This document shows, one piece after another, positions 14,164 through 50,497 of a DNA stretch of 50,497 nucleotides. Below the pieces are notes generated by a model. It made no database searches. It saw nothing but the letters and a program-made list of their open reading frames with translations, and was not told the origin of the DNA. The stretch's first letter is position 1. Each line of letters begins with the position of its first letter. The DNA is from Candidatus Nomurabacteria bacterium (GTDB lineage Bacteria; Patescibacteriota; Minisyncoccia; Phycocordibacterales; UBA2100). The DNA lies in the NCBI GenBank assembly GCA_943356775.1, contig CALRFU010000006.1, forward strand, positions 1-50,497. The letters are read 5' to 3'. The position numbers and the translations under genes were made by a program.

Positions 14164-14260
14164 AAAATATCAAAGCTATCCAGTAATGCTCCAATTCTAG
14201 CATCCAAATAGACTTTCTCAACAAGTAAATAGACGCGTGTTCATTCGCACTTCGTTTCTG

Positions 14261-14347
14261 GCGGGCCCACTAGGAATCGCCTCTCGCTCTGCTGAGCTCG
14301 AAACCTTCGCCCCCTCTTCGGGGGCTGCGGCCCGCGGTTCGATTCCT
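14261..14347 (-). mobile_element. tRNA-linked structured element downstream of tRNA-Trp
   Basis: 19-bp tRNA 3' duplicate (14261..14279 = 14375..14393), a 62-bp core identical to 15288..15349, and an inverted T-loop copy at 14336..14347. Confidence 0.7.
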
Positions 14348-14375
14348 GCGGTCTCCTCACTCACTCCGTTCGTTG

Positions 14376-14446
14376 CGGGCCCACTAGGAATCGAACCTAG
14401 GTCTGCTCTTTTGGAGAGAGATATTCTACCATTGAACTATGGACCC
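14376..14446 (-). tRNA. tRNA-Trp(CCA)
   Basis: GGGTCCA/TGGGCCC acceptor, CT-CCA-AA loop, CTAGG-TTCGATT-CCTAG T-arm. Confidence 0.93.
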
Positions 14447-15232: not shown

Positions 15233-15261
15233 CAAAAAGCTCCCTTCGCGGGAGCTTTTTG
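15233..15261 (-). terminator. Intrinsic terminator
   Basis: CAAAAAGCTCCC-TTCGC-GGGAGCTTTTTG. Confidence 0.75.
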
Positions 15262-15353
15262 TATTGAGTGCGCCGGGTTGGATTCGGCTCTCGCTCTGCT
15301 GAGCTCGAAACCTTCGCCCCCTCTTCGGGGGCTGCGGCCCGCGGTTCGAATCC
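15254..15353 (-). mobile_element. tRNA-linked structured element downstream of tRNA-Tyr
   Basis: 33-bp exact duplicate (15254..15286 = 15388..15420), a 62-bp core identical to the tRNA-Trp element, and an inverted T-loop at 15343..15353. Confidence 0.7.
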
Positions 15354-15360
15354 CGATGCC

Positions 15361-15400
15361 CAATACAAAAAGCGCCTCGCTAGAGACGCTTTTTGTATTG
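15361..15400 (-). terminator. Intrinsic terminator after tRNA-Tyr
   Basis: CAATACAAAAAGCG...CGCTTTTTGTATTG, a 14-bp stem. Confidence 0.75.
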
Positions 15401-15402
15401 AG

Positions 15403-15485
15403 TGCGCCGGGTTGGATTCGAACCAACGAAGACCGGAGTCAATTGGTTTACAGCCAATCCCCTTTGACCGCTTGGGTACCGACGC
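15403..15485 (-). tRNA. tRNA-Tyr(GTA)
   Basis: GCGTCGG/CCGGCGC acceptor, ATTGG-CT-GTA-AA-CCAAT, long variable arm, GGTTCGAATCC. Confidence 0.95.
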
Positions 15486-24132: not shown

Positions 24133-24338
24133 GGGCAGATGGCGAAATTGGCGAATCAGCTGATTCGTGGCTTGGCCATGAAAACGCGTCCTTTTCAAAG
24201 TGCTGGGGTGGCGAAATTGGTAGACGCGCCAGGCTTAGGACCTGGTCTCGCAAGAGGTGGAGGTTCGAGTCCTCTCCCCAGCACTTTGAACGGAACCTGG
24301 TCTCGCAAGAGGTGGAGGTTCGAGTCCTCTCCTGCCCA
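24133..24338 (+). pseudogene. Split tRNA-Leu remnant (5' part 24133..24151, 3' part 24295..24338) enclosing an intact tRNA-Leu
   Basis: GGGCAGA-TG-GCGAAATTGG pairs with the distal CCTGCCC-A; the anticodon loop is missing. Confidence 0.75.
24202..24283 (+). tRNA. tRNA-Leu(TAG)
   Basis: GCTGGGG/CCCCAGC acceptor, CCAGG-CT-TAG-GA-CCTGG, long variable arm, GGTTCGAGTCC. Confidence 0.95.
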
Positions 24339-24382: not shown

Positions 24383-24479
24383 GGACTCGAACAGGAAGGG
24401 GGTCGGGGAAACACTTGTTTCCCCGTGGAGGAAGGAATGGGAAAACCGTGGGTTTCCCAGAGGTTCGAGTCCTCTCCCC
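24383..24479 (+). mobile_element. tRNA-linked structured element downstream of tRNA-Leu(TAG)
   Basis: Inverted T-loop GGACTCGAAC at 24383..24392, two internal hairpins, and a 20-bp tRNA duplicate (24460..24479 = 24260..24279). Confidence 0.65.
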
Positions 24480-24492
24480 CTGACCCAAAAAT

Positions 24493-48375: not shown

Positions 48376-48592
48376 TTATGGACGAGCCTTGCGGCCCGCC
48401 CCCTCGGAAGGTCGCAATAGCGGTCCCTCCGGCGGAGCAGTGCATCGCACCACTCCCGCAGCGTTCGGAATGAATGCCGCAACGATCTGACTCAAGACAA
48501 AATAGCACACTTTCGATTAGGCAGAAAATGCGCTAAACTATTGACGATTCCCAAGCTCAAGGGGCCTGCCCTGCGAAGCCTTGGCGAAGCAG

Positions 48593-48664
48593 GGCCCTAT
48601 CGTCTAACGGTTAGGACACATGCTTTTCAAGCATGGAACCCGGGTTCGATTCCCGGTAGGGTCA
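48593..48664 (+). tRNA. tRNA-Glu(TTC)
   Basis: GGCCCTA/TAGGGTC acceptor, CATGC-TT-TTC-AA-GCATG, CCGGG-TTCGATT-CCCGG. Confidence 0.95.
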
Positions 48665-50178
48665 CAAAATAGAACTTCGTCCAAAGAAAGAGCGGAACGC
48701 ACGCTCGCTTGGGGCGAGCGTGCGTGCATTTTGCCGCGGAGTGCCGCGGCGTATTCGGTCGGCGGCGGAATTCTGAAATGCATGGATTTGCTTTCAATAC
48801 TGGGGTTCGTTCCGACTTTCCGCACGAAATCGGAGATTTCGTGCAAGTTGTCGGACGAACTCAAAACCATGGCCTGTTTCGTATCCAAAACCCACTCCCG
48901 CAGGGGTTCGACCCAATTCTTTCGTCCGCGCTCAAAATCTTTCTTTTTCTCTTGCAAAGCGACGAGAGAGCGCATGAGCGCGTCTTTGCGCTTCAGATAA
49001 TTTTCTTTCGGTATATCGCCGTCGAGGTACGTTGAAACCAATTTGTCCATGCGCTCCTCGCTCGCTTTGATTTCTGAAGAAAGATTTTGTATCTCGCTTC
49101 CCGACGCGGTGGTTTCCTCGCGCTCCCACTCATCCACTTTGTTCAACATCCAGCCGGTGTATGTATCGGGAAGCGAGATAGTTTGAAGCCGTTCCTTGAT
49201 TTGACTTGCGAGCAAGTCTTCGCGCAAGTATTTGGCACCACAGTTGCCTTTCTTTTTCGTGCAACGGTAGTAGCGATATCTGCCACCCGACTTTCCTGTA
49301 GCCCACTGTGCAGTAAACATGCTCCCACATTCGGTGCAACGAAAAAGATTAGCGAAAGGAAAATCGTGCGTACCGCGTACCTTGCGACGCTTCTCCTTGC
49401 TCGCAAGGATTTTTTGAACGGCTTCAAACTGGCGCGGGGAAAGAATTGGCGCGAAGCTTCCGGGAAAATATTCGTCGTAGTGTTTTGTGAATCCGAGATA
49501 GGCGCGATTGGTGAGAATCCTTTTCACGGAAGCTTTGCCAAGTCGCGTCCCGGCCTTAGTAGCGATACCGAGGTCTTTCAGAAACTGTGCCATTGATACG
49601 AGCGTGTAGCTCCCTTTGGCGTATTCGTCGAACGCGTGAGCGATGATGCGCGACTTCACCACATCCGGTTCGATATTGCGCGTGCGCGGATTATTTACGT
49701 ACCCGAACGGCGCGCGAGTAAGCCACTCGCCACGGCGCAGTTTCTGGCGCATACCGCGGCGCGTGTTTTCGGCAAGATTGTCGGAATAATATTTGCTTTG
49801 GCCGAACGCCACTTGAAGCATAAAGAGCCCCTGCGGGGTGGGTTCAAACCAAAATGTCGGAAAACGCAAAGACACAATTTTGGAAGTGTCTACGGCGTAA
49901 ATGATGCGCCCACCGTCAATGCTATTTCGCGCGAGGCGATCGGGGTGCCACGCGATTATTCCGTTCGCCTCTCCGCGCTCAAGGCGCATTATCATTTCGC
50001 CGAACACTTCGCGCCCCGGTGTCTTTGCGCTTTTCGACTCTTGAAATTCTTTCAGAATTTCAAGATTTTCTCTGCTCGCAAATTCGCGTAGTTCGACAAG
50101 TTGAGCGGGAATACTCATTACCTGTTTGTCGTCAGGTTCGGTACTTTTGCGAGCGTAGAGAAAATATTTGTGCGCCAT
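48604..50178 (-). CDS. Large serine recombinase (catalytic, recombinase, zinc-ribbon and coiled-coil domains)
   Basis: YFLYARKSTE (catalytic Ser), DRLARN, APFGY, CTECG...YYRC...C. Likely start is ATG 50178 (524 aa). The stop lies antisense inside tRNA-Glu. Confidence 0.93.
   Translation of the reverse strand: MAHKYFLYARKSTEPDDKQVMSIPAQLVELREFASRENLEILKEFQESKSAKTPGREVFGEMIMRLERGEANGIIAWHPDRLARNSIDGGRIIYAVDTSKIVSLRFPTFWFEPTPQGLFMLQVAFGQSKYYSDNLAENTRRGMRQKLRRGEWLTRAPFGYVNNPRTRNIEPDVVKSRIIAHAFDEYAKGSYTLVSMAQFLKDLGIATKAGTRLGKASVKRILTNRAYLGFTKHYDEYFPGSFAPILSPRQFEAVQKILASKEKRRKVRGTHDFPFANLFRCTECGSMFTAQWATGKSGGRYRYYRCTKKKGNCGAKYLREDLLASQIKERLQTISLPDTYTGWMLNKVDEWEREETTASGSEIQNLSSEIKASEERMDKLVSTYLDGDIPKENYLKRKDALMRSLVALQEKKKDFERGRKNWVEPLREWVLDTKQAMVLSSSDNLHEISDFVRKVGTNPSIESKSMHFRIPPPTEYAAALRGKMHARSPQASVRSALSLDEVLFCDPTGNRTRVPCLKSMCPNR
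48662..48791 (+). repeat. Left 130-bp inverted repeat
   Basis: Reverse complement of 50225..50354 with one mismatch; includes the last 3 nt of tRNA-Glu and the recombinase 3' region. Confidence 0.95.
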
Positions 50179-50211
50179 ACTTTTGCATGATAGCACTTGC
50201 AAAAGTATGGC
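50174..50211. promoter_or_regulatory. Perfect 14-bp palindrome covering the recombinase start codon and putative -10 box
   Basis: GCCATACTTTTGCA-10 nt-TGCAAAAGTATGGC; minus-strand TATCAT lies upstream of the ATG. Confidence 0.75.
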
Positions 50212-50224
50212 TCGATATTCGGGT

Positions 50225-50354
50225 GCAAATCCATGCATTTCAGAATTCCGCCGCCGACCGAATACGCCGCGGTACTCCGCGGCAAAATGCACGCACGCTC
50301 GCCCCAAGCGAGCGTGCGTTCCGCTCTTTCTTTGGACGAAGTTCTATTTTGTGA
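50225..50354 (-). repeat. Right 130-bp inverted repeat
   Basis: GCAAATCCATGCATTTC...GTTCTATTTTGTGA, 129/130 identical to the left copy. Confidence 0.95.
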
Positions 50355-50497
50355 GGATATTCTAACCTTTGCGCGAACCCACTATGAATCGCAATGAGGA
50401 TGCGCACGCGCCGCGTGCGCTGTAATGCGAGCCAGCGAATTACGCCCCGATTGCGCTGGAACGCTGAACGCCGCCACCGCGCCAAAGCGCGGTACAC

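Follow-up and report, generated by a model that had tools for sequence, protein, structure and literature searches.

Are the two inverted repeats that enclose a recombinase gene beside tRNA-Glu the ends of a minimal cassette, or do they belong to something larger? The question is raised by the far end of the window, a stretch of 50,497 nucleotides from Candidatus Nomurabacteria bacterium (contig CALRFU010000006.1), where a large serine recombinase (LSR) gene lies between repeats of 130 nt. The answer favoured here, at a probability of roughly 70%, is that the repeats form the tRNA-proximal end of an LSR integrative element of about 3-4.5 kb, widespread in Patescibacteria, which carries an inverted duplicate of its attachment site, attP.

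The repeat, the recombinase and the module beside them

The repeat arms (R), recomputed at 48662-48791 and 50225-50354, are 130 nt each and 99% complementary with a single mismatch at 48743/50273, in agreement with the initial annotation. The unit spans 1693 nt from R to R, and a 47-nt stretch of the repeat has 2 exact occurrences in the window compared with 0 in 100 shuffles. As first described, the left arm begins within the end of tRNA-Glu(ttc) (48593..48665, plus strand), overlapping its last 4 nt by the ARAGORN prediction, or 3 nt with the discriminator as the final base of the gene. This overlap, TCAC at 48662..48665 on the plus strand (tRNA nt 71-72, the discriminator and C74), is the putative core, or crossover region, of an attL-like site. 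The left, 3'-side arm encodes LSR residues 463-505 on the minus strand and contains a 12-bp hairpin at 48697-48725, and its outer 20 nt presumably constitute the element-side (P') half-site.

Between the arms, the sole long ORF runs on the minus strand from an ATG at 50178 to a stop at 48604-48606. Both Pfam domains and homologues identify it as an intact LSR gene (48604..50178, 524 aa), the lone gene recognized there from the outset. The Resolvase domain (PF00239, 2.9e-22, residues 6-152) is followed by Recombinase (PF07508, 8.5e-12, residues 175-260) and Zn_ribbon_recom (PF13408, 1.9e-11, residues 274-331), and the motif Y8-A9-R10-K11-S12 is invariant in 15 homologues. The enzyme thus tests as integrase-type, with a resolvase catalytic domain bearing the serine nucleophile and Recombinase and zinc-ribbon domains C-terminal to it. 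After the last 43 in-repeat codons, the protein ends in DPTGNRTRVPCLKSMCPNR, whose 19 codons are antisense to tRNA-Glu, while the right arm holds the same frame on the plus strand and continues to EDILTFARTHYESQ, with a stop that ends at 50397, so that both of the C-termini originally proposed can be read. The probable crossover site lies inside the 3' end of the ORF, consistent with the earlier suggestion of an att site within the recombinase's own gene. Because the ORF crosses the core, its last 14-21 codons are supplied by whatever R is joined to.

The 5'-side arm (50225..50354, plus strand) is transcribed as LSR leader and would form the P' half of an intact, inverted attP-like site. Within the leader, a 14-bp hairpin (50175..50210, minus strand) pairs the ATG at 50176-50178 and presumably has a function; the RNA fold of 50150-50360 (minus strand) reaches -85.6 kcal/mol, with z = -5.6 relative to shuffles. 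The core of this arm, GTGA at 50351-50354, adjoins a module termed M (50355..50497, minus strand), which is cut by the contig end. This flank is conserved in 52 loci with the consensus ttCgAAAaaaGTTCGnGCAAAgGtTAaaAtttcA directly followed by R. In the window, M contains a pseudo-T-arm GGTTCG (50374-50379, minus strand), a hairpin motif GCGCACGCGGCGCGTGCGC and, in a promoter scan, a promoter-like TTCATA-18 nt-TAGAAT (50388 to 50359, minus strand) that faces R and the LSR gene. M probably carries the recombinase promoter, which would allow autoregulation. Since this promoter-like element is conserved, expression of the LSR does not need the gene to be aligned with the tRNA promoter, the role first assigned to a flip. 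M was also considered as a structured RNA, a view disfavoured by an Rfam scan of nine related loci, which returned tRNAs alone and no known RNA in M, and by RNAalifold on 20 M sequences, which gave 3 pairs and no covariation. A promoter together with conserved DNA motifs is the better reading.

The element and its true ends

The layout recurs in 65 related loci, whose LSRs are 49-90% identical to that of the window. Each has an inverted repeat of 83-227 nt around the gene, with a median arm-to-arm identity of 100% and an outer edge at tRNA nt 71. Mismatches along R have no internal hotspot, and protection is limited to the outer 20 nt, where the mismatch rate is 0.5% compared with about 2% elsewhere; GAAACTT at +10 to +16 is nearly invariant. 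In 50 of the 65 loci a convergent tRNA ends at the same point relative to the repeat, which bears out the initial annotation's proposal of tRNA targeting, and the tRNA may be Glu, Ser, Arg, Lys, Ala, Gly, Leu, Ile, Pro or Gln. Outside the 5'-side arm, M is present as a conserved non-coding module in essentially all relatives, and ten complete loci carry a second, inverted M 1.1-2.2 kb farther on, the two copies being 94-100% identical with cargo between them. The outer M joins sequence resembling a native tRNA trailer or terminator. In these ten loci, the tRNA.R, M.R and M.trailer junctions have only a core of 4-6 nt in common (8 nt in L019), and this core co-varies with the tRNA in both arms (TCAC with Glu, CCGC with Ser, GCAC with Gly and Leu, GGAC with Lys, CCAC with Ala, CGAC with Pro). 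The distance from GTTCG to the core is 24 nt in M (37 of 61 loci) and 18 nt in tRNAs (46 of 50). These loci establish the architecture of the element and the logic of its three junctions. The layout had seemed unlike that of large serine recombinases; it fits them once the true ends are used, as attL and attR then share a 4-6 nt core alone.

On this architecture, the LSR would integrate the element at the 3' end of a tRNA gene. The attB would comprise the T-arm/acceptor and the native trailer, with crossover within tRNA nt 71-74, and attP would be M.core.R, carried with long flanks as an inverted duplication. Integration via one attP copy is expected to yield attL (tRNA.R, window 48662) and attR (M.trailer, off the contig) and to leave the second copy intact across the recombinase gene (R.M, window 50354/50355). 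The 130-nt inverted repeat would then consist of the R of attL and the R of the internal inverted attP, while a second repeat pair, M...M, would bracket the cargo; the tRNA-Glu T-arm and acceptor 3' strand would provide the host (B-type) half of the attL-like junction. The tail would be tRNA antisense in an element integrated as in the window and M antisense in one that is flipped or excised. Conservation suggests that the LSR binds the outer roughly 20 nt of R together with the GTTCG-containing ends of M and the tRNA, and the half-site assignments, drawn from the same conservation, are provisional. The P and P' arms are without obvious symmetry. A symmetric P/P' half-site model was rejected, and as AAGTT-type motifs lie at unequal distances from the core, no detailed half-site map is claimed.

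At the window locus, the 143 nt past the right arm are element sequence, not host flank. The window ends where its contig ends (the LSR gene lies at 320-1894 of CALRDZ010000001.1). Window 48524-50489 is matched at 100%, with its arrangement unchanged, by L002, a 1966-nt megahit k141 contig assembled independently from another sample, and both contigs end 135-143 nt into M, the k-1 signature of a repeat. A 269-nt Logan unitig spans 50349-50497 plus 120 nt past the window end at about twice the LSR-interior depth (X1-X3), which implies an M of about 260 nt in two copies in the source genome. Given this depth and the stop of the contig inside M, the cargo and attR of the window element lie off-contig. 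The attR is visible solely as a Logan loose end, where the alternative outer neighbour of M reads AATATCC-TCACAA-GTATCGGAAC... The sequence past 50497 is predicted to continue in M for about 120 nt, to run through 1-2.5 kb of cargo into an inverted M, and to reach the core TCACAA followed by GTATCGGAACAAGG...

Each element encodes a single recombinase and in most cases a small XRE-type regulator, together with cargo of one to three genes, for instance a cytochrome cd1-like protein, an aromatic amino-acid lyase, a MazF toxin, a HAD hydrolase or a short-chain dehydrogenase. The cargo is metabolic or toxin-type, with no virion genes and no candidate recombination directionality factor among it. 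A viral origin was considered and set aside, there being no relative in 2.9 million IMG/VR contigs. A search for an empty site by synteny found no homologues of the window's cation-efflux neighbours in any related locus fetched. The LSR had further been put forward as mobiliser of the small tRNA-linked elements in the window, which turn out to carry 19-38 nt direct repeats of tRNA ends and R/M matches at chance level, and thus do not bear its signature.

Homologous proteins number more than 6,255, and relatives are encoded in 555 of the 600 pattern matches listed, from species-representative genomes. Some sources label them 'DNA invertase Pin-like', a name that reflects the shared catalytic domain alone. 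A literature search found no description of this tRNA-targeting LSR element family, which is apparently both common in Patescibacteria and undescribed. How Patescibacteria, with their tiny genomes, acquire accessory genes is little understood; the family resembles a dedicated gene shuttle that docks at the ends of many different tRNA genes.

Orientation, tails and competing explanations

Where a spare inverted copy of the attachment site is kept, the recombinase gene can occur in either orientation. The clearest instance is the 'Arg element' (L085-L096), in which a 1387-nt LSR body is identical in all 12 contigs, while R, M and cargo agree completely or almost completely (96.7-100%). On the outside, the pairs of 5'-side/3'-side partners comprise M/tRNA-Arg, M/pseudo-site X, tRNA-Arg/M and M/M. 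One and the same tRNA-Arg borders the 5'-side arm in L087 but the 3'-side arm in L089-L093, around the identical LSR body. These contigs show that both orientations of the LSR segment occur in nature, as read in near-identical relatives and not at the window locus. Here R measures 134 nt, below k = 141, so the junction pairings are phased by single k-mers. The cargo orientations that distinguish L085 from L086 and L089 from L093 depend on reading across a repeat of 229 nt, which exceeds k = 141, and may reflect assembler choice. An arm-specific mismatch at offset 118 of 134 leaves core-specific and homologous exchange inseparable. The element occurs at two different sites, tRNA-Arg and X, and the M/M contig (L086) is a circle-compatible form in a near-identical relative; recent mobility is evident. 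Elsewhere, L068 has real tRNAs on both sides, the product expected if the internal attP recombines with a second tRNA, and in L013 tRNA-Glu lies upstream of the LSR gene and co-directional with it.

The initial annotation had predicted that the gene flips and that its tail is thereby exchanged. The flip is supported by the 'Arg element', where both orientations are found, whereas the window locus is seen in a single state in L002, the one k141 contig spanning both arms. The exact flipped version of the window LSR is absent from a collection of 15 billion proteins. The predicted alternative tail does exist within the window LSR's own 90% cluster, in P0133 (...FCEDILTHARTHFARAERVVA) and P0134 (...FCEDILTHARTHFESQ). 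A survey of homologue tails, also proposed at the outset, covered 120 cluster representatives: a script classed 67 tails as tRNA-antisense and 10 as M-antisense ('FART'), and reading the 42 unclassified ones by eye brought the totals to roughly 80 and 16. The alternative tails are probably a by-product, not a designed switch. Flipping could be catalysed by the recombinase (attL x inverted attP) or result from RecA-type exchange between perfect repeats, and the orientation variants could also arise by excision followed by re-integration through the other attP copy.

This last route leads to an explanation that is possible, if not probable, in which the architecture is static and nothing inverts in situ: the circle integrates via either attP copy, each variant records a separate excision and re-integration, and gene conversion keeps the repeats identical. 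The circle-compatible contig and the presence of one element at both tRNA-Arg and X are in keeping with it, as is L088, in which the coding arm has donated a 78-nt tract to its counterpart; canonical large serine integrases, moreover, are not known to act on anything but attP x attB, and need a directionality factor for the reverse reaction. Such a route nevertheless depends on excision being efficient, and elements this small show no evident directionality factor. By itself it also leaves both cargo orientations relative to the recombinase unexplained, if the assemblies are right.

More doubtful is that the LSR flips its own segment by recombining attL with the internal inverted attP, toggling M-promoter against tRNA read-through together with the tail and leaving, on excision, a circle with two inverted attP sites comparable to the 2-micron plasmid. 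As the R half-site and the core are common to both sites, recombination would regenerate its own substrates and could run freely in either direction without a directionality factor. For canonical large serine integrases, no attL x attP recombination is known. If the LSR does flip its segment, each flip would swap the gene's promoter as well as its tail (tRNA- or M-antisense), providing a built-in toggle over whether the element remains in place, leaves its site or targets a second tRNA.

It is improbable that the two 130-nt repeats delimit a minimal cassette, be it a switch that inverts itself or a 1.7-kb transposon with the repeats as its ends. The recombinase is the sole gene between the repeats and many homologue-bearing database contigs are just 1.7-2.0 kb long, a length that is accounted for by assembly breaks inside the two-copy M. 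M is conserved beside the 5'-side arm at unrelated tRNA sites and hence belongs to the element. Complete loci end at M.trailer, past the cargo and the second inverted M, and not at R; in no related locus does R abut a native trailer directly. Finally, a fold-back chimera, as might be suspected with the right arm 143 nt from a contig end, is hardly credible when an independent assembly gives the same sequence, when three runs contain the junction unitigs of tRNA.R, of M.R and of both inner edges (Logan contigs at k = 31 give these four unitigs, the 130-nt repeat being too long to link outer with inner edges), and when 65 loci, many internal to long contigs, have the same layout.

The integrative element with a duplicated attP, then, is unusual for a serine integrase in that the recombinase ORF extends over the site of its own crossover and the element, once integrated, stays 'armed' through a spare inverted attP. 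It offers a natural system for directionality control without an obvious accessory factor, and it accounts for the breaking of short-read assemblies at such loci in these genomes. A compact recombinase with short tRNA-like targets and naturally varying core dinucleotides may also interest genome engineers.

Comparison with known systems

The integrases of phiC31, Bxb1 and A118 and TnpX of Tn4451 are the same three-domain enzyme as the window LSR. Their elements likewise integrate site-specifically, with the recombinase gene beside one att site, and their att sites are simple, sharing a very short core and lacking long direct repeats. Compared with them, the present element targets the extreme 3' end of tRNAs, is just 3-4.5 kb long with 1-3 cargo genes, and keeps a second intact, inverted attP with flanks of 270-430 bp, which produces nested, near-perfect inverted repeats; its recombinase ORF reads through the crossover core, and it has no evident directionality factor. 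A phage integrase of a recognized virus is not indicated either, as no relative occurs on IMG/VR viral contigs.

IS607-family transposons also rely on a serine recombinase as sole mobility enzyme. They lack terminal inverted repeats, and their TnpA, usually accompanied by TnpB, is small, has a MerR-like HTH at its N-terminus and shows little target specificity, whereas the LSR has the order Resolvase, Recombinase, Zn ribbon, lacks TnpB and targets tRNA 3' ends. Tycheposons resemble the family as small cargo-carrying elements that target tRNAs and shuttle accessory genes in streamlined genomes. Tyrosine recombinases are found in 474 of 501 tycheposons, which leave partial-tRNA direct repeats, and an inverted attP duplication is not described for them (Hackl et al., bioRxiv 10.1101/2020.12.28.424599). 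The element here has a serine recombinase and a 4-6 nt core as its sole repeat.

The invertase systems Hin/hix, Gin/gix, Cin, Pin and Min place a serine recombinase beside or inside a segment bounded by inverted sites, and inversion in the Mu and P1 switches yields alternative C-termini. These invertases are enzymes of about 190 aa with a C-terminal HTH, 26-bp sites and the need for a Fis-bound enhancer. In contrast, the LSR has 524 aa, integrase-type domains and 130-nt repeats, which sets it apart from the serine DNA invertases, and its inversion is putative. The yeast 2-micron plasmid (FLP/FRT, 599-bp inverted repeats) and plastid flip-flop provide another parallel, a circle in which a long inverted repeat holds the recombination site and splits the molecule into two arcs found in both relative orientations. 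FLP, however, is a tyrosine recombinase that serves replicon copy-number amplification, and no replication gene is seen in the present element. The SSV1-type (fusellovirus) integrase is a tyrosine recombinase with attP inside its int gene, which is split in two on integration. As in the window, the attachment site lies in the recombinase ORF, the target is a tRNA and integration alters the gene product; unlike it, the present enzyme exchanges its last 14-21 codons alone and stays intact.

A serine recombinase gene between inverted repeats

In the window, the large serine recombinase (LSR) gene is flanked by an inverted-repeat unit, R, whose 130-nt arms lie at 48662-48791 (the left or 3'-side arm, on the tRNA side) and 50225-50354 (the right or 5'-side arm) and differ by a single mismatch at 48743/50273. 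A 47-nt stretch of R has exactly two copies in the window; none turned up in 100 shuffles. The sole substantial ORF between the arms runs on the minus strand from 50178 to 48604 and encodes 524 aa carrying Resolvase, Recombinase and Zn_ribbon_recom domains, and is therefore an LSR. Its 3' part passes through the left arm for 43 codons and then continues for 19 codons antisense to tRNA-Glu(ttc) (48593-48665), while the right arm, read outward in the same frame, yields the tail EDILTFARTHYESQ*, ending at 50397. Thus the initial annotation was correct in placing one intact LSR between inverted repeats, and both of the alternative C-termini it described can be read. The contig ends where the window does, and 48524-50489 is reproduced exactly, and independently, by a k141 assembly of a different sample (contig L002), which rules out a fold-back assembly artefact as the source of R.

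The 211-nt leader of the LSR gene folds far better than its shuffles (z = -5.6), suggesting translational control; at 50175-50210 it holds a 14-bp hairpin in which the start codon is paired. On the tRNA side, unitigs from three Logan sequencing runs (X1-X3) break at 48637-48666, where a second context, ...GGCATTCGCATTGCCGAGT, is joined to the last ~28 nt of tRNA-Glu; this is probably another tRNA gene of the community whose T-arm and acceptor end match those of tRNA-Glu.

The inverted-repeat layout is a family trait. Databases hold >6,255 homologues of the LSR, nearly all labelled Patescibacteria and many on contigs of only 1.7-2.0 kb. The survey of flanking repeats that had been proposed, run on 80 loci of species-representative genomes whose LSRs share 49-90% identity with the window enzyme, found R around the gene in 65 (83-227 nt, median 130 nt). 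The median arm identity was 100%, with 33 pairs identical and 44 at 98% or above. In 50 of these 65 loci, the 3'-side arm ends within the terminal 4-6 nt of a convergent tRNA, be it Glu, Ser, Arg, Lys, Ala, Gly, Leu, Ile, Pro or Gln. Both arms have as their outermost nucleotides tRNA positions 71-72, the discriminator and C74, which co-vary with tRNA type. Within the outer 20 nt of R, where GAAACTT is near-invariant, mismatch between arms is 0.5%, versus ~2% in the rest. Some close relatives (L004:4380-4575; proteins P0122 and P0123) are frameshifted exactly at R or within it, with an early stop (468 aa) or a change of frame; either the copies are in decay or the GC-rich hairpins were misassembled.

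Module M and the extent of the element

Outside the 5'-side arm lies a non-coding module, M (consensus ttCgAAAaaaGTTCGnGCAAAgGtTAaaAtttcA, directly followed by R), which is conserved among elements at unrelated tRNAs. The right arm is accordingly not the end of the element, and the earlier view of the repeats as its bounds is disfavoured. M carries a pseudo-T-arm GTTCG 24 nt from its edge in 37 of 61 loci; on the tRNA side, the T-loop GTTCG lies 18 nt from the edge in 46 of 50. A -10-like TAnnnT directed into R and the LSR gene is present in M in 34 of 52 loci, and in the window the minus strand has a promoter-like TTCATA-18 nt-TAGAAT there (50388 to 50359). M matched no Rfam family, and no covariation was seen in it.

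Ten loci with enough upstream sequence contain a second, inverted M (145-297 nt, 94-100% identical) and 1.1-2.2 kb of cargo between the two copies, for a whole-element size of 3.1-4.4 kb. The outer end of the second M leads into a 4-6-nt core and then into sequence resembling a native tRNA trailer or terminator. There are thus three junctions, tRNA.core.R, M.core.R (inverted) and M.core.trailer. Only the core is common to all three. Serine-integrase rules make the first an attL, the second an intact attP and the third an attR, so that the layout, initially thought to fit neither LSR nor IS607 elements, is readable as the former. A typical cargo comprises one to three accessory genes alongside a small HTH gene of the XRE type, and Pfam matches are to Cytochrom_D1, aromatic amino-acid lyase, GrpB, a deaminase, PG_binding, MazF, HAD and adh_short. 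A more distant relative with an M-antisense tail (L083:1-7807) adjoins a methyltransferase and ResIII/DEAD helicase gene pair, from which some elements may carry restriction-modification or defence cargo.

The window contig ends 143 nt into M and L002 135 nt into it, the k-1 signature of a two-copy repeat. A 269-nt Logan unitig spans 50349-50497, extends 120 nt past the window end and has ~2x the depth of the LSR interior in three runs. Unitigs for both the tRNA.R and the M.R junction are present, and the other outer neighbour of M in these runs, AATATCC-TCACAA-GTATCGGAACAAGG..., would be the expected attR. From the contig ends, the doubled depth and the alternative neighbour, we infer that the window element runs on off-contig into cargo and a second M.

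Orientation variants and alternative tails

The best evidence of mobility comes from one element, termed the Arg element, which was recovered from different ENA samples as 12 k141 contigs (L085-L096), with a 1387-nt LSR body identical in all 12 and with R, M and cargo 96.7-100% identical. The 5'-side and 3'-side partners are M and tRNA-Arg(cct) in L089-L091 and L093, M and a non-tRNA site, X, in L094-L096, tRNA-Arg and M in L087, and M and M in L086, compatible with a 4.08-kb circle; in L092, which begins inside the 5'-side arm, the tRNA-Arg side alone is visible. These pairings are reliable because R (134 nt) is shorter than k (141), such that single k-mers span outer and inner flanks. Cargo likewise occurs in both orientations (L085 versus L086, L089 versus L093, L094 versus L095), although these differences could reflect assembler path choice, as M (229 nt) exceeds k. 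The arm-specific marker lies too far inward to place the exchange point. Site X (L094:3973-4100; L096:1885-2010), which reads ...TTATTCCGATACCGACACGGG followed by GCAC, shares the GCAC core and a loose likeness to the tRNA-Arg end and, judged by sequence, is a natural pseudo-attB.

Other loci vary similarly. In L013, tRNA-Glu lies upstream of the LSR gene and is co-directional with it. In L068:2774-4598, a real tRNA-Leu gene stands on either side of the LSR (caa and gag); the two converge, and each overlaps one arm by 4 nt. This is the product expected if the internal attP recombined with a second tRNA, and would imply element-mediated chromosomal rearrangement between two tRNA genes. In L088:1-157, the Arg element in another sample, compared with L085:1-189, the 5'-side arm has gained a 78-nt tract copied from the coding one and so reaches an 18-nt inner repeat found in many other loci (e.g. 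L010, 2963-2980 and 4280-4297). The tract looks like gene conversion between arms, so homologous exchange or conversion may also act on R. A relative in the window protein's 90% cluster (L084:1-2016) has M-type flanks on both sides, with differing M copies and R arms 88% identical.

Both tails also exist among homologues. A scripted count classed the tails of 120 cluster representatives as tRNA-antisense in 67 and as M-antisense ('..FARTH..') in 10, numbers that rose to ~80 and ~16 after 42 unclassified tails were read by eye. P0133 and P0134, both in the 90% cluster of the window protein, end in M-antisense tails; that of P0134, ...FCEDILTHARTHFESQ, is nearly the one predicted for the window protein. 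Both partner orders in near-identical Arg elements support flipping in relatives. At the window locus it is a prediction: L002, the one k141 contig across both arms, has a single state, and the exact flipped window protein is absent from the protein collection. The two tails are regarded as a by-product of crossover-site position, not a demonstrated switch.

Other inserts adjoin tRNAs in the window. At 14248-14407 and 15254-15420, inserts of ~100-130 nt adjoin tRNA-Trp and tRNA-Tyr (both minus strand); they share a 74-nt core, 96% identical and resembling an antisense partial tRNA (GGAATCGAACC...), are each followed by a 19-33-nt direct copy of the host tRNA 3' end, and match R or M at chance level only. 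The 3' part of tRNA-Leu(tag) is repeated in tandem as an exact 38-nt copy, spaced 55 nt from the original (24240-24332), and just downstream ARAGORN calls an unusually long, 94-nt tRNA-His (24392-24485).

Proposed mechanism and known systems

Integration takes place at the tRNA 3' end via the 4-6-nt core, attP is present as an inverted duplicate, and the LSR tail is set by the junction partner because the ORF crosses the core; identical elements are found in different orientations and at different integration sites. The LSR would recognise the outer part of R together with those ends of M and the tRNA that carry GTTCG. M may supply the LSR promoter, in which case attP binding could autoregulate the gene, and the strongly structured leader (z = -5.6) may conceal its start codon. 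Flipping would follow one of three routes, namely LSR action on attL and the inverted attP, RecA-type exchange, or excision and re-integration via the other attP copy.

A recognised phage was rejected for this family, no relative having turned up among 2.9 million IMG/VR contigs, as were, on domain architecture and att-site logic, a tycheposon, an IS607 element and a Hin/Gin-type invertase; by the same two measures, the family is an LSR integrative element. A literature search found no description of it. Compared with described LSR elements, it targets tRNA ends, is very small, has nested near-perfect inverted repeats made by a spare inverted attP, and has an ORF that runs across the core.
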